Shown here in pieces: positions 5,176 through 32,696 of a stretch of DNA of 40,110 nt (its first letter is position 1; each line of letters begins with the position of its first letter). This DNA comes from an uncultured Oligoflexus sp. (GTDB lineage Bacteria; Bdellovibrionota_B; Oligoflexia; Oligoflexales; Oligoflexaceae). The stretch covers positions 1-40,110 of the forward strand of contig CAXSGP010000039.1 in assembly GCA_964236955.1 (NCBI GenBank), in the 5' to 3' direction. Made by a program: the position numbers and the translations under genes. The notes under the pieces were generated by a model. It searched no databases, had not been told where the DNA came from, and was given only the letters and a program-made list of their open reading frames with translations.

Positions 5176-6630
5176 TTATCTTACTTTCACCATTTTTCTC
5201 CCAGTTCGAGCTACACATACACCGTTTCTGATGATGAACGCTTCAACCCAGTGGGTCCCACGAAAACTCGTGCTTTCCCAACGGATAGTTGGAGCGTTCT
5301 TCTCTCCATCTATGAAATCTCCCCGAAGTTCATTGACGCTCGCTGCTTCCTGCCCGCTATTGACAACTTGCCATTTAACGTCGAAAGTCCCAGGTACGTT
5401 CGTTGATACTCTGAATTGAATGTGGGTCTTTTTGCCAATTGGACGGTCAGTAAGGGCGCCGATATTTTTATGGCTATATTTTCCAGGGTGAAGCGTCGCG
5501 GAAATAGCCGCTTTGTACTGCGTAGCTATCGGCCAAAGGGGGGCTTGACAATGATGCGTTGACGCTAAGGCAGGCACCAAAGACAACGGATTCGCCGGTA
5601 AACTTTTTTGCAGACGTTCCGTAAGAACTTCCGCCTTCCTCACGATACCTAATCCCATCATCTGCTCTAGCATTATCTTGGCGCCGAACAAGTCTTTCGC
5701 GGCGAACATTGCGGTAAAGTCAGTTTTCGCTTTCTCTAGCCATAGGAAGATGTCCTTACGTCTTTCGGGGTACTGATTCCACTTGTCTGCGAAATTTTCG
5801 CCCTCATCGGCAGGGTTTTGTACGATATATTTGCCGTCTTTTACCTGAATGAAAACCTCCATTCCATTCAGTATGCCAAGTAACGATGGCTGGAGATCGT
5901 CTTGATTTTGATAGGCCCAAGCGGCCAGCGTCGTGATAATAATTGACACCGGGCGTCGCTCGCACTCGTTGGCAAAGAATACATCCCTATGTCTCTTTAA
6001 AATCTGCACAACTCGTTGAAGGGGAGTTTTTACTTGCCAATCGGGAAGTTCGGCTACTTCCACGCTAATGGATTTGGCAAACGCCGCTCTTTTTTCTAGG
6101 AGCACTATTCTCATGCGATCTTTAAACCAGTCAGCATATTTAATCGGATTGCTGTATTGCCAGTGTCGAAGTTCCTTGTCCGTCAGCGAGATTCCTGTGG
6201 GCAAATTTTCTTCGTTAGGTATTGCTGGAAGAACGTCCATGTGCAACTGATCTGTGAAATTTATTCGCCAGCAACGACGACTTTCAACAACCTTCCCTTT
6301 GAGATCATCGTCAGATTTTAATCGATCACCAACTCTCTTTTTAAGTTCGGCCTGAGTGATAGACGTTTTCTGGATGTCAAGCTCGCAAACCAAATCGATA
6401 TCGTACTCGTCCTTATCGCTCAAAGGTTTTACTACCGTACCCAATCGAAACGAACCTTGAGGATATATTTTTAAAGAGTTCGTAGTCAGCTTCGATTCTT
6501 CATCAGACAAGTGCTCTGCCATTTGAAGATATTTTAACTTTACGTCTTCGTGGAGTTCATCGGGGATGTCAAGAGCTTCGGCAACGGATTTCAAAAGACT
6601 CTCGATATCGGAACGAGCTGTTCTAAACAT
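5176..6630 (-). CDS. CBASS cGAS/DncV-like nucleotidyltransferase (CD-NTase) with a C-terminal AGS-C domain
   Basis: QGSFRLGT...YDIDL...DVLP NTase core, followed by LKRHRD, SIIITTLAA and ENFADKW. The C-terminal KWQVVNSG..A..LRGDF..WEST.F.G.HWVEAF matches AGS-C. Confidence 0.92.
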   Translation of the reverse strand: MFRTARSDIESLLKSVAEALDIPDELHEDVKLKYLQMAEHLSDEESKLTTNSLKIYPQGSFRLGTVVKPLSDKDEYDIDLVCELDIQKTSITQAELKKRVGDRLKSDDDLKGKVVESRRCWRINFTDQLHMDVLPAIPNEENLPTGISLTDKELRHWQYSNPIKYADWFKDRMRIVLLEKRAAFAKSISVEVAELPDWQVKTPLQRVVQILKRHRDVFFANECERRPVSIIITTLAAWAYQNQDDLQPSLLGILNGMEVFIQVKDGKYIVQNPADEGENFADKWNQYPERRKDIFLWLEKAKTDFTAMFAAKDLFGAKIMLEQMMGLGIVRKAEVLTERLQKSLPANPLSLVPALASTHHCQAPLWPIATQYKAAISATLHPGKYSHKNIGALTDRPIGKKTHIQFRVSTNVPGTFDVKWQVVNSGQEAASVNELRGDFIDGEKNAPTIRWESTSFRGTHWVEAFIIRNGVCVARTGRKMVKVR

Positions 6631-6636
6631 ATTTTC

Positions 6637-7590
6637 TCAACTATGTATCGGTGTATAGATGCTTGCGCGATGGCCGCAGAATTTTGCTTTGAAAGTCGGT
6701 GCGAAATTCCTGCTGTGAAAAGCACCTTTGGCTAACAAATCATCGGTTTTTGAGATGCCATCAAGTGTAAAAGTTCCATGCGCGACCTTCGGATCGAGTC
6801 GTTCAAATCTCTCTTCGCCAAGGAAAAACTTCGACTGGTTTGCAGCTCCTCGACTTTGACCTCGTAAAATCACGCTTACGCCCTCTTCTTTCCAATGCCA
6901 CTTTCCGCCACGAGTTAGAGAACTCGCTCTTTCGGAAATTTCATCAGAAGTTCCTAAACTGCAAATTGATATTTTATCGAGCGGAACCAATAAAGTCCCT
7001 ATGGCTTCGACTAATGCAACCATCGACGGGTTGTTAGCCCATACGCCCCCATCGACGAGGCGTGCCTTATCAACTTCAGTGCAACTCGGAAAATAAGAAG
7101 GGGCGGAACTTGTCGCCAATGCTGCCTTCCAAATCGGAACTCTATAATCTCGTGCTAGTCGCTCATGGTGAGGTGTACGAAATATATAAACGTCGTCATC
7201 GGTCAGTGAATAGGAGGGGATTACGACACGTTTTTGAAGATCTGCAATACGTTTATCGCCAAAGCATTCCTTTAGAGCATCTGAAAGCGGTTCAGAGGAA
7301 AATTTATTACCAAAATATCCTTTGAATGAACTCTTGCGCCGCTTAAATATCTTTGGACCGTTATTCACGTAAAAATTTACTATTTCTCGTGGTCTGATGC
7401 CGTTCGCGAGAGCGAGCGCAATGATTCCTCCTGTCGAAGTCCCTGCTATGAGATCGAAATGATCACTAACATTGATTTTGAGGTCTTCTTCTAGGTTGGC
7501 GAGGATCGCGGCTGACATGAGACCTTTGATCCCGCCCCCGTCAAGAGACAGAATTTGAAACTTCGGAGTTGAGTTTTCCAAGATAAGCAC
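6637..7590 (-). CDS. CBASS patatin-like phospholipase effector (CapV-like)
   Basis: LSLDGGGIKG, GTSTG and DGGVWANNP motifs; ends 6 bp upstream of the CD-NTase. Confidence 0.92.
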   Translation of the reverse strand: MLILENSTPKFQILSLDGGGIKGLMSAAILANLEEDLKINVSDHFDLIAGTSTGGIIALALANGIRPREIVNFYVNNGPKIFKRRKSSFKGYFGNKFSSEPLSDALKECFGDKRIADLQKRVVIPSYSLTDDDVYIFRTPHHERLARDYRVPIWKAALATSSAPSYFPSCTEVDKARLVDGGVWANNPSMVALVEAIGTLLVPLDKISICSLGTSDEISERASSLTRGGKWHWKEEGVSVILRGQSRGAANQSKFFLGEERFERLDPKVAHGTFTLDGISKTDDLLAKGAFHSRNFAPTFKAKFCGHRASIYTPIHS

Positions 7591-8039: not shown

Positions 8040-8050
8040 ATTCCAGACAC

Positions 8051-8077
8051 AAAAAAAGGAACCTAAGTTCCTTTTTT
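8051..8077. terminator. Intrinsic (bidirectional-type) terminator after tRNA-Leu
   Basis: AAAAAAA-GGAAC-CTAA-GTTCC-TTTTTT, 10 bp past the tRNA discriminator. Confidence 0.8.
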
Positions 8078-8086
8078 AGTAGAAAG

Positions 8087-8438
8087 TACCTCGCGCCAGA
8101 CTCGAACTGGCACACCTTGCGGCAATGGATTTTGACGCTTTGCGGACTATATCATCACCCTACTACCGTTTCCGATATGAGGGGCCGGGCGCTTTTTCAC
8201 TGAGGCATTACTCCCAGCTAATTCCTGTAGTTTAAGCCATCTCGCGACAGCACAGGTAGTCTCTGAACCTTCCGCATCTGCGGCTTGGCTGCTGATTGTT
8301 ACGTCAATAACTTCCCAGCAATTCACCCGATTTCATCATCTCAAATTGCTCTGAGAGTGGACTCGTTGTTTTTTTCTGCGTCTCTTGCAAGACCTTCAGA
8401 CACTTTATCCATCGTGTCTACCATTCCACCAGCGAGGC
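8087..8438 (-). tRNA. tRNA-Leu(CAA), intron-containing; exon 1 is 8438-8407 and exon 2 is 8135-8087
   Basis: The joined exons fold as acceptor GCCUCGC/GCGAGGU, D arm GUGGAAUGGUAGACAC, anticodon arm AUGGA-UUCAAAA-UCCAU, long variable arm, T arm GCCAG-UUCGAGU-CUGGC and A73. CCA is not encoded. Confidence 0.95.
8136..8406 (-). ncRNA. Group I self-splicing intron (271 nt, no homing endonuclease, with P7.1/P7.2; IA-like)
   Basis: Core elements P GAAUUGCUGGGAA, Q AAUCAGCAG, R GUUCAGAGACUA and S GAUAUAGUCC; P3 UCGGGU/GCCCGG. IGS GUCCA (8362-8358) pairs with exon UGGAU, giving U·G at the splice site. Terminal G at 8136. Confidence 0.95.
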
Positions 8439-9877: not shown

Positions 9878-12800
9878 ATGAAGCCTTATTCCAAGCGCGG
9901 CCAGGATATAGAGAAACTACTGAAGCAGCGTATTCTTGTGCTCGACGGCGCAATGGGCACCATGGTGCAGCAGTATAAACTCAACGAACAGGACTTTCGG
10001 GGGGACCGTTTTCCTGACCATCCCATCGATCTGAAGGGTAACAACGACCTTTTGGTTTTGACGCGCCCCGATGTAATTAAGGAGATTCACCTTCAGTATC
10101 TCGAAGCGGGATCGGATATCATTGAAACCAACACTTTCAGTGGAACGCAGATCGCCCAAGCCGACTATAAACTTGAGCACATAGTCTTCGAGCTCAATAA
10201 AAAAGCCGCCGAACTTGCCAAACAGGCTGTAGCCGAACATAAAGCCAAGACGGGCAAGGACTGTTACGTGGCCGGAGCTCTCGGACCGACCAACCGTACG
10301 TGTTCCCTCTCCCCCGACGTGAATAATCCCGCCTATCGGGCGGTTACCTTCGACGAACTTGTCGATACCTATTACGAACAAATCGAAGGTCTGATGGCCG
10401 GCGGGATCGACCTCCTGCTACCCGAGACCGTGTTCGATACTTTAAATCTCAAGGCCTCGATCGTCGCGATCGATAAATACTTTGCCGACAAGCCTTTCCG
10501 TGTTCCCGTCATGCTCTCCGTGACGATCACCGATGCTTCGGGACGGACGCTCTCGGGCCAAACCGTGGAGGCGTTCTGGTATTCCGTGCGGCAGGCGCGG
10601 CCCTTGAGCGTTGGAATCAACTGCGCACTGGGCGCTTTGGAAATGCGTCCCTATATCGAAACCCTCTCGAAGATCTCAGAATGCTATATCAGCTGCTATC
10701 CAAATGCGGGTTTGCCCAACCCCCTCAGCGATACCGGTTATGACGAAACACCGGCAATGACATCGGGATTTCTCGATGAATTCGCCCGCAGTCAACTTCT
10801 CAACATCGTCGGCGGCTGTTGCGGAACCACGCCCGACCATATTCGAGCGATCGCCGACCATGTGAAAAATAAAGCGCCGCGCAAAGTGCCTTCGCTGGAA
10901 GTCATGACGCGATTGAGTGGCCTGGAACCCCTTGTAATCAAGCCCGACGGCGGTCTTTTCTATATGGTGGGGGAGCGGGCCAACGTTACGGGTTCTCCCA
11001 AATTCGCGAAGCTTATCAAAGAAGGCAATTTCGATGCCGGTCTCGCGATTGCCAGGCAGCAGGTGGAAAGCGGCGCGAATATTATCGACATCAACTTCGA
11101 CGAAGGTATGCTCGAATCTGAAAAATGCATGACGCACTTTTTGAACCTTGTCGCCTCCGAACCTGATATCTGCCGCGTGCCTATCATGATCGACAGTTCG
11201 AAATGGTCGGTGCTTGAAGCCGGCATGCGCTGCATCCAGGGGAAATGTATCGTTAATTCGATCAGCCTCAAGGAAGGCGAGGAGATTTTCCTAGATCATG
11301 CCCGGACCGTGATGAAATATGGCTGTGCAGTCGTCGTTATGGCCTTCGATGAGAAAGGTCAGGCGGCAACACTCGAAGACAAGATTCGTATCTGCCAACG
11401 TGCTTATAAGCTCCTGGTCGAAGAGATCGACTTTCCCCCGGAAGATATTATTTTCGATGCCAACATTCTTACCGTCGGTACCGGCATCGAAGAGCATGCG
11501 AACTATGCCGTTGATTTCATCGAAGCGGTGCGGGCCATCAAAGCCACCTGTCCCCATGTTTTGACCAGTGGTGGTATCTCAAATATCTCCTTTAGTTTTC
11601 GGGGCAACAACGTCGTCCGCGAAGCGATGCACTCGTCCTTCCTCTACCATGCGATCAAAGCCGGACTGGATATGGGCATCGTCAACGCCGGTATGCTCGA
11701 AGTCTATGAAGAGGTCGAGCCCACCCTTCTGAAACTCGTTGAAGATGTTCTTCTCAACCGCAGTCCGGAAGCGACCGAACGCCTGATCGATTATGCGGAG
11801 CAGGTCAAAGATCAGGCCAAAGCCGGCAAGGAAAGCGATAAAAATGCATGGCGTGAGCATGCCGTCGAACATAGGATCATCCATTCCCTGGTCAAAGGCA
11901 TCGATGAATTCATTGAAATCGACACCGAAGAAGCCCGCCTCAAGCACCCTAGACCTCTCGATGTGATTGAAGGGCCGCTCATGGACGGAATGAAAGTCGT
12001 CGGTGGGCTGTTTGGCGAAGGCAAGATGTTCCTGCCACAGGTCGTCAAGAGCGCCCGGGTTATGAAGAAGGCCGTGGCCCACCTTCAGCCCTTCATGGAG
12101 GCCGATAAACTCAAAAACGGCGGTCGGCAGAGCCAGGGCCGCTTCCTCATCGCCACGGTAAAGGGCGATGTCCACGATATAGGCAAAAATATCGTCGCCG
12201 TCGTGCTGGCCTGTAATAACTACGAGGTTAAAGATCTTGGAGTTATGGTGTCGTGCGAGGAGATCCTGCGCAAAGCCAAGGAGATGGACGCCGATATCAT
12301 CGGTTTGAGTGGACTCATCACACCGTCCCTTGATGAAATGATTTACAATGCGGGAGAAATGGAGCGACAGGGCTATACGATTCCGCTGCTAATCGGCGGT
12401 GCCACCACGAGCAAGGCCCATACCGCAATCAAGATCGCCCCGCATTATCACGGTGCCGTGTGTCATGTCGGTGATGCTTCGCTGGTCGTTGAGGTGGTTA
12501 ACGATCTTATCAGTGAGGAACGCCGCGGCGCATTCAAGGAAAAGCTTAAGGTTGACCAGGAAGCCATTCGAATTCGTCATGCGGCGCAGGTAAAAGACAG
12601 CGTGTTCCTTAGTCTACGGGAGGCGCGGGAAGCCAAATTCAAGACCGACTGGCAATCATCGCCCATCGATGTACCGAGCCGTCTGGGAGTTTGGGAACAG
12701 GAGGATCTCAGCCTTGAAGAGGTTGCCCGATACATCGACTGGTCGCCTTTTTTCTGGACTTGGGATATCAAAGCCCTTTATCCGAAGGTCCTTACCCATA

Positions 12801-32203: not shown

Positions 32204-32367
32204 TTACCGTCACTCAGTCAGCGTTGAGGTCTCATCAGCGTCGCGCGCGAGTCTAACCCGGAAGGTCCTAGGTCAGTGCAGGCAAGCAAGAGAGCCTTAA
32301 AGCTAAGGAGTGCAGCACGGAACAGGTAAATTAAGACACAAAGGAGCAGCCGCAAGCAGAAAATCAC

Positions 32368-32469
32368 TTCGCACTTCCTACGCTGGTATGAACCAGTTCA
32401 GGTACTAGAGTTGGATGACTGAGCTCCTGGGCAGATTCATCCTCTCAGCCTTGCGGCACCCCTGGCGAA
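32368..32469 (-). promoter_or_regulatory. TPP riboswitch
   Basis: GGGGUGCC-GCAA-GGCUGAGA...ACCUGAACUGGUUCAUACCAGCGUAGGAAG upstream of thiC. Confidence 0.96.
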
Positions 32470-32696
32470 ACTGGGAGAGTCTTAGCACATTTTGGATAAG
32501 AATGAAATCCTTGAATCCTGGGAATACTGAGGCGAAACTGCCGACGAGAGAGACTGGGTATTCTCTTGCTTCAGGAATGGCGGATGCCGATCCAGATTCT
32601 TTAAAAGTTGTTGTTCCGGAATAAAAAGACCCAAAGTCGGTCGAGCGCGAAGCCAGGCCTGATTTGAGTCTTTCTTTTCATGCGGCCAAGACCGTA

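Follow-up and report, generated by a model that had tools for sequence, protein, structure and literature searches.

A tRNA-Leu(CAA) gene interrupted by a group I intron between U32 and U33 in an uncultured Oligoflexus species, and a predicted route for the intron's removal

The split tRNA-Leu(CAA) gene and its surroundings

The window, by which we mean the whole stretch of 40,110 bases analysed here, carries on its minus strand (8438..8087) a gene for a class II tRNA-Leu with a long variable arm and the anticodon CAA. The gene is split by an intron. Exon 1 (8407..8438, minus strand) provides tRNA positions 1-32 in 32 nucleotides and ends in AUGGA followed by U32, and exon 2 (8087..8135, minus strand) provides positions 33-73, beginning with U33-CAA-AA-UCCAU. 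The sequence of the second exon reads to an A73 discriminator at 8087, and CCA is not encoded. Between the exons is a group I intron of 271 nucleotides (8136..8406, minus strand), which begins with AAAG and ends with an omega-G at 8136. When introns are allowed, ARAGORN recovers the split gene (8087..8438, minus strand) as c[8086,8438] tRNA-Leu(caa), i(33,271), that is, with a 271-nucleotide intron after base 32. With default settings the same program reports no tRNAs across all 40,110 bases of the window, as had been anticipated when a sequence-only reading of this locus proposed that standard finders might miss the gene. The paper on tRNAscan-SE 2.0 describes that program as not designed for the detection of group I introns.

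The junction can be located precisely due to the existence of an intron-free orthologue, which was found among 61 related genomes in another member of the same genus (G004, locus L020, 1501-1581). In that gene, exon 1 (32 of 32 bases identical) and exon 2 (49 of 49) lie back to back, and the tRNA model RF00005 gives the uninterrupted sequence 53.6 bits. The two loci are syntenic on both flanks, the intron is absent from the G004 locus, and the flanking alignments break exactly at 8407 and 8135. Moreover, the junction cannot slide: the intron opens with A where exon 2 opens with U, and it closes with G where exon 1 closes with U. As read from these sequences, the insertion point is fixed between U32 and U33.

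Joining the exons at this point restores a standard tRNA with a seven-nucleotide anticodon loop, UUCAAAA, and the interruption has the U(-1) and G(omega) borders of an anticodon-loop group I intron. The orthologue and the ARAGORN borders agree with each other, and they uphold the original claim of a genuine group I intron at 32/33. We consider it barely credible that the junction lies elsewhere, for example at 33/34, with 32/33 arising as an artefact of numbering. After the AUGGA stem strand only one U remains in exon 1, the terminal bases of the intron are A (5´) and G (3´), and the borders GGAU / UCAAAA are identical throughout a set of 13 related sequences described below. Any shift would yield a loop that disagrees with the intron-free orthologue, in keeping with the earlier argument that no other junction gives a proper loop.

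Just 3´ of the tRNA gene is a perfect inverted repeat with A/T runs (8050..8079), noted on reading the sequence, that looks like a two-way terminator. It drew no call in a consensus terminator scan, and it accounts for spurious matches to microRNA models in our Rfam scan. A promoter scan gave no hit for the minus strand. The tRNA gene is followed immediately downstream, on the same strand, by a CBASS-like defence pair (5176-7590): a phospholipase of the patatin-like type (6637-7590) and an enzyme of the CD-NTase/SMODS kind that carries an AGS-C sensor domain (5176-6630). This pair fits the presence of an island beside a tRNA gene, and no att-like repeat of the tRNA 3´ end was found in the window within three mismatches. 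Elsewhere in the window, the plus strand near the contig start matches domains D1-D4 of a group II intron (89-328; RF02005, 99.9 bits) followed by an ORF of 505 amino acids (349-1866), and a TPP riboswitch is located on the minus strand at 32357-32473 (RF00059, 58.4 bits).

Two diverged, partial copies of the split gene (88-92% identity) are present in permuted order on the minus strand of another contig of the same assembly (G000:C118:10273-10530 and 11084-11261; L019 and L026). The first contains the 3´ part of the intron, exon 2 and the terminator, and the second, located approximately 550 nucleotides later, contains a mutated exon 1 and the 5´ part of the intron, ending before the 3´ strand of P3. 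The two parts overlap by approximately 85 intron bases, and genes for HTH and HipA-like proteins adjoin them. Together they carry three exon substitutions, one of which falls on the leading G of the GG pair conserved in the D-loop, presumably G18. Their order is that of an engineered permuted intron-exon construct, and they are most likely the debris of a duplication or an island junction. A different rearrangement is evident in another genome of the genus (G002:C30, L011), where the truncated 5´ half of one tRNA-Leu(CAA) gene is followed downstream, after approximately 180 nucleotides, by another tRNA-Leu(CAA) gene that is complete and differs from it. This arrangement looks like a scar of integration or replacement.

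The ribozyme core and its pairing with the exons

The Rfam group I intron model RF00028 matches the minus strand from 8399 to 8138 over its full length (model positions 1-253) with a score of 48.5 bits and an E value of 2.8e-11. Given that the gathering score of this model is 50 bits, a scan at gathering level omits the intron, whose score is 1.5 bits under the cut-off. The 12 other homologues found at the same site all exceed the cut-off (50.9-86.5 bits), and the window copy is the lowest of 13.

The 13 distinct sequences comprise the window intron, four homologues from the same genus (G009, G008, G010 and G001; 84-93% identity), one of 543 nucleotides from another family of the same order (G042), and seven recovered by a pattern scan of species-representative genomes. 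These were aligned with MAFFT, a hand-drawn P1-P9 structure was projected onto the alignment, and the pairs were counted. Standard pairs occupy 93.9% of 920 cells versus 29.5-37.6% when the partners are slid by one to three columns, compensatory changes affecting both sides occur in 40 of the 78 pairs, and none of 500 shuffles reaches any of five measures, where the drawing of the structure from the window sequence and the relatedness of the sequences both favour the observed values over the controls.

The alignment reveals a conserved P3-P9 core with a P3/P7 pseudoknot. Proceeding from the intron's 5´ end (all elements are on the minus strand), a P2 hairpin (8339..8356) has compensatory changes in six of its six pairs. 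The 5´ strand of P3 (8324..8330) pairs with 8191..8185 in all aligned cells, and two of these pairs are compensatory. The P4-P5-P6 domain (8267..8320; helices 6-10 of our alignment) follows the RF00028 consensus alignment, as does the 5´ strand of the guanosine-binding helix P7 (8257..8261), which pairs with 8149..8145. Between P7 and the 3´ strand of P3 are a P7.1-like hairpin with a GCGA loop (8224..8256), which is found in all 13 sequences and whose inner stem is compensatory at six of six pairs, and a P7.2-like hairpin (8200..8217), which is compensatory at four of five pairs and absent from one relative (L114). Next come the 3´ strand of P3 (8185..8191; helix 5), a P8 hairpin with a GAAA loop (8158..8183; helices 15-16), the 3´ strand of P7 (8145..8149), supported by RF00028 and the alignment, and a small P9 hairpin (8136..8144; two of three pairs compensatory) that ends in the omega-G. 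All 13 homologues end in G. Overall, compensatory changes are numerous in P2, P5, the P7.1 inner stem, P7.2, P8 and P9, and some are present in P4 and P3. Covariation is uninformative on P7 because this helix is invariant in all 13 sequences. No homing endonuclease is encoded, as the small ORFs over this region (59, 55, 73 and 79 amino acids) match no Pfam family.

The proposed guide sequence fares equally well. The internal guide sequence (IGS) GUCCA (8358..8362, minus strand) forms the 3´ strand of P1, is paired in 100% of cells, and has as its partner exon bases U28-U32 (8407..8411, minus strand), which pair with the IGS in 13 of 13 sequences. U32 (8407) is opposite G8362, forming a U·G wobble in every case, and the outer pair of P1 (U-A in six sequences, C-G in seven) switches together with tRNA position 28. 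The sequence-only reading had predicted both this guide and its U·G pair, and the covariation with the exon now adds to that prediction. Because U32 is the only loop base that precedes the cut, the exon side of P1 is drawn in four of its five pairs from the anticodon stem's 5´ strand, and for the same reason P1 and the anticodon stem cannot coexist.

The distance from the splice site to the IGS is 9 nucleotides in L114, 44 in the window and 118 in the G042 homologue (L007), and therefore we interpret the stretch before the IGS as an apical insert of P1. In the window this insert (8363..8406, minus strand) is 44 nucleotides in length and includes a GCAA-capped hairpin at 8393..8380, in which five of five pairs have changed on both sides. 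The 118-nucleotide insert of L007 (G042:C39) is A-rich and belongs to a 543-nucleotide intron in an AT-rich genome, in which P7.2 is also expanded by three tandem repeats of 12 nucleotides. A nearer guide was considered as well, formed by intron bases +6..+10 pairing with U28-U32 through three wobbles. This candidate is absent from L007 and L114 and exhibits no covariation, and we reject it because it is not conserved while the distal GUCCA/GUCCG guide covaries with the exon.

Two further contacts with the exons can be suggested. Bases A and G at 8363..8364 (minus strand) could serve as P10 partners for U33 and C34, and on this reading of the sequence P10 would possibly extend to at most 2 bp (U33-A8363 and C34-G8364). 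The second candidate is a helix we call ‘Px’, in which intron bases +4..+9 (8398..8403, minus strand) complement exon 1 bases 20-25 (8419..8414). A perfect complement of 6-7 nucleotides to exon bases 20-26, the 3´ strand of the D arm, is found in 11 of the 13 Leu(CAA) introns. It occurs in three forms with two covarying positions, both sides changing together. L007 is without this motif, and no such complement was found in the Asn, Thr or Lys intron types examined. Together with P1, Px would topologically form a pseudoknot next to the cleavage site. As a component of the mechanism, Px looks promising but is unproven.

A site-specific lineage and its bearing on leucine decoding

The insertion site had been described from the window alone as rare or unreported, and the first of these terms is not borne out. 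The same intron at the same site of tRNA-Leu(CAA) is found in at least 13 species-representative genomes of two phyla. Within the phylum of the window, our intron search located it in 6 of 131 genomes, including 5 of the 14 in the genus and one of the two in genus g16. The seven other hosts carry titles of Gammaproteobacteria, Pseudomonadales, Cellvibrionales or Spongiibacter, one being Spongiibacter pelagi. An intron-free version of the gene is present in genomes G002, G004, G005, G006, G007 and G013 of the same genus, and no tRNA-Leu(CAA) gene was found in G003, G011 and G012, which are 72-86% complete.

A core pattern common to the window intron and L007 occurs at no fewer than 119 loci in species genomes and at least 123 loci in viral contigs. 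Among the 119 species-genome loci listed, ARAGORN with introns allowed reports a split tRNA at 81 (82 calls), consisting of 25 calls for Asn(GUU) at 35/36, 18 for Thr(UGU) at 33/34, 12 for Thr(GGU) at 33/34, 9 for Leu(CAA) at 32/33, 3 for Lys(CUU) at 36/37, and a remainder that is single or doubtful. Two of the nine Leu(CAA) loci are identical in sequence to the same-genus representatives L005 and L003. Position 35/36, which the earlier list of known insertion sites gives for Patescibacteria, appears in this census too, in tRNA-Asn. Two calls of Lys(CUU) at 32/33, both from Isosphaeraceae-titled genomes, read better as a CAU tRNA split at 36/37; because these are mis-calls, position 32/33 is used only in tRNA-Leu(CAA) among the core-pattern loci listed. 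More generally, loci L042, L053 and L065 (with Isosphaeraceae, Tundrisphaera and Paludisphaera titles) are called Lys(CUU) 32/33 or Gln(CUG) where a CAU tRNA split at 36/37 fits better, and therefore borders assigned automatically need to be checked for U(-1) and G(omega).

In a FastTree phylogeny of the intron cores (76 sequences, 329 columns), all 12 Leu(CAA) introns included form one clade with an SH-like support of 0.958, which is separate from the introns of the Asn, Thr and Lys types. L007 was left out of this tree for length, and L003 and L005 were represented by their identical copies L145 and L052. Judged by these sequence relationships, the Leu(CAA) introns are one site-specific lineage that spans two phyla and is patchy within the genus. 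Given this patchy presence at a single locus, the intron should be a handy marker of intron gain and loss. A different pattern is observed for the Asn 35/36 and Thr(UGU) 33/34 introns of Patescibacteria- and Saccharibacteria-titled genomes (L030-L148), which are intermixed in the tree. This hints that closely related introns have switched between the Asn and Thr(UGU) sites, unlike the one-clade Leu(CAA) lineage.

ARAGORN identifies 38 intron-free tRNAs in the assembly, which is 86% complete, and those for leucine have only the anticodons CAG, GAG and UAG; neither tRNA-Leu(CAA) nor tRNA-Leu(UAA) is among them. The tRNA-Leu(UAA) gene of this genome (G000:C23:45534-45876, L028) carries a classical group I intron of 256 nucleotides at 34/35, which scores 41.5 bits against RF00028. 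Thus, every UUR-reading tRNA gene found in the assembly is split, and the two genes are interrupted by different group I introns. Among 77,532 leucine codons counted over 1,196 long ORFs, UUG contributes 14.6% and UUA 6.7%, and so for approximately 21% of leucine codons in long ORFs no intron-free tRNA gene was found in the assembly. A tRNA-Leu(UAA) could also read UUG by wobble. Because both UUR-reading tRNA genes found are split, it is nevertheless reasonable to expect UUG decoding to depend on splicing, as had been suggested from the window sequence. The assembly is 86% complete and a second, intron-free copy may lie outside it; with this caveat, it is plausible that the dependence holds and that it extends to UUA. 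Genes such as this one are silently missing from tRNA annotations, and since the UUR tRNA genes found here are all split, inferences about ‘missing’ tRNAs or codon capacity in genomes of this kind will be wrong unless they are made with introns in mind.

We also considered whether this insertion site has been described before. A full-text search of the literature returned no description of an intron at 32/33, nor of a group I intron at this place in tRNA-Leu(CAA), where the type-by-type table of Williams 2020 lies outside the searchable text. That study, the only one found to bear on new tRNA sites, raised the number of known tRNA intron settings from 4 to 21 by using Rfam covariance models and ARAGORN with introns, the same tools that recover the Leu(CAA) gene. 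Type names in the same text (Leu.3Ug, fMet.2Ug, Arg.5Ug and Ile2.5Ug) match the list of known sites given in the sequence-only reading. Under that nomenclature the Leu(CAA) site would be ‘Leu.1Ug’, a name that was not found in the literature searched by text, and any genome of this kind in the 2017 data set used by Williams 2020 would have been typed as such. We therefore give roughly even odds that the bare 32/33 site is already among the 21 types. A broader claim of novelty is one we advance with more doubt than confidence: that an undescribed IA2-like lineage dismantles two tRNA arms, with the anticodon stem donated to P1 and the D arm to Px, such that splicing doubles as a folding switch, in a host whose UUR tRNAs, as found, are split by two unrelated ribozymes.

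Predicted splicing and comparison with known systems

With the above features in mind, we estimate a probability of approximately 0.85 that the window carries a working tRNA-Leu(CAA) gene whose precursor contains a 271-nucleotide group I intron between U32 and U33. The comparisons above demonstrate the exons, their exact junction, the guide sequence and the ribozyme core helices, and from these we infer the following order of events. Exon bases U28-U32 would leave the anticodon stem and pair with GUCCA, bringing the U32·G wobble to the point of cleavage. P7 would bind an external guanosine, which would then cut after U32. Subsequently, the last G of the intron (8136) would take the vacated site, and U32 would be joined to U33. 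The freed exons would be expected to refold, forming the anticodon stem and the seven-nucleotide loop UUCAAAA. The unfolded form of the substrate may be stabilised by Px, in which the start of the intron would pair with exon 1 along its D-arm strand. The intron that performs these steps would belong to a single site-specific lineage with an IA2-like core, distributed patchily at the same locus within the genus. A site located after U32 forces the substrate helix to be built from the anticodon stem itself, and thus the 32/33 intron would serve as a natural experiment on the extent to which a pre-tRNA can unfold and still splice and refold.

RNA libraries make up six of the 22 sequencing runs listed, and four of them (X4, X8, X18 and X19) were examined. 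No exon-exon joint was found in the X4, X8, X18 and X19 contigs of relatives, which could be DNA. Contigs corresponding to the unspliced form, 90-99% alike, bridge 8135/8136 (X4 and X18) or 8406/8407 (X8), and their origin may also be DNA. Some contigs match exon 2 up to 8135 and then continue into a different exon 1; we assign these to the intron-free tRNA-Leu(CAA) genes of other organisms.

The library results bear on the idea that the intron is real but has lost the ability to splice, in which case the gene would be a dying pseudogene and UUG would be read by tRNA-Leu(UAA) alone. In addition to the absence of spliced RNA from the four RNA libraries, whose contigs could be DNA, one might cite the RF00028 score of the window copy (48.5 bits, under the cut-off and the lowest of 13) and the presence on contig C118 of two decayed partial copies of this gene. 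However, the exons match the intron-free orthologue at 100% identity, every core helix is intact, differences from the relatives are compensatory, and the gene has been kept in five species of the genus. The C118 fragments also illustrate what decay looks like in this gene, namely three exon substitutions and truncations, and the window gene does not resemble them. We consider loss of splicing to be very unlikely, and continue to favour a working gene.

A second possibility is that removal in the cell requires a host protein or chaperone and that self-splicing in vitro is inefficient, given that P1 has to win a competition with the anticodon stem. Lacking any extension on the intron side, P1 reaches only 5 bp, the same length as the competing stem, and P10 would have at most 2 bp; furthermore, protein-assisted splicing of other group I introns is described in the review by Hausner 2014. 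Set against this are the complete core and its several GNRA-capped peripheral hairpins, as well as the observation that the closest sequence relatives, among the matches listed, are phage introns, a kind for which self-splicing is reported in one IA2 example from a DNA polymerase gene (PMC3428280). No candidate cofactor gene lies beside the tRNA. Dependence on a cofactor is therefore judged improbable, if less so than the loss of splicing, and we retain the proposal of a working, splicing-competent precursor.

The subgroup of the intron is most easily discussed by comparison with the introns it resembles. In IC3 introns the 3´ strand of P3 typically follows P7 directly, with no P7.1 or P7.2. 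In the Leu(CAA) intron, 63 nucleotides with two covarying hairpins are present between the 5´ strand of P7 and the 3´ strand of P3, a stretch that appears as one long insertion in the Rfam alignment, and hence the IC3 arrangement is not observed. All four classical tRNA intron types are IC3 as marked by GISSD, according to Williams 2020 (bioRxiv 10.1101/2020.01.27.920355). An IA2 assignment was made in PMC3428280 on the basis of ‘P7.1 and P7.2 linked by a G-U-A sequence’. Both hairpins are present in the window, and the linker there is AAUUAG, as elsewhere in its genus, which lacks the G-U-A of that definition; the linker is AAGUAG in L007 and in six of the seven gammaproteobacterial relatives, and L114 is without P7.2. 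With this imperfect fit, the most suitable description would be an ‘IA2-like’ intron with a phage-type core.

Phage IA2 introns, which reside in genes for DNA polymerase and other proteins, share with the Leu(CAA) intron the core sequence and the P7.1 and P7.2 hairpins. The best named phage matches, among those listed, are at or beside DNA polymerase genes. In contrast to these phage introns, the Leu(CAA) intron is located in a tRNA gene, lacks an ORF for a homing endonuclease, and has a P2. None of the 123 viral-contig core-pattern matches listed is a split tRNA, which leaves the tRNA intron without a phage carrier among these matches.

Like the Leu(CAA) intron, the classical tRNA-Leu(UAA) intron interrupts the anticodon loop of a leucine tRNA, has U(-1) and omega-G, and causes its gene to be missed by standard finders. 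The classical intron, however, is inserted at 34/35 rather than 32/33. The two introns within this host align poorly, and in the C23 Leu(UAA) intron the 3´ strand of P3 directly follows P7, as judged by eye against what we take to be the Azoarcus pattern, unlike the 63 nucleotides and two hairpins found at this place in the Leu(CAA) intron. The type ‘Leu.3Cg’, as named in Williams 2020, is likewise in a leucine tRNA but at 34/35 with C at position -1, whereas the Leu(CAA) intron has U at this position and interrupts 32/33.

The intron of Azoarcus pre-tRNA-Ile(CAU) is a compact IC3 intron of 205 nucleotides that is inserted at 36/37, after the anticodon. Because five loop bases precede the 36/37 site, its P1 could be formed largely of loop bases, whereas the P1 of the Leu(CAA) intron consists almost wholly of stem bases. 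The Anabaena tRNA-Leu(UAA) intron, in work attributed to Zaug et al. in 1993, reportedly requires the stem formed by one exon with the other. The Leu(CAA) intron presents the opposite case, in that four bases of the anticodon stem would be taken by P1, and judging from this arrangement the 32/33 lineage must work differently from the Anabaena intron.
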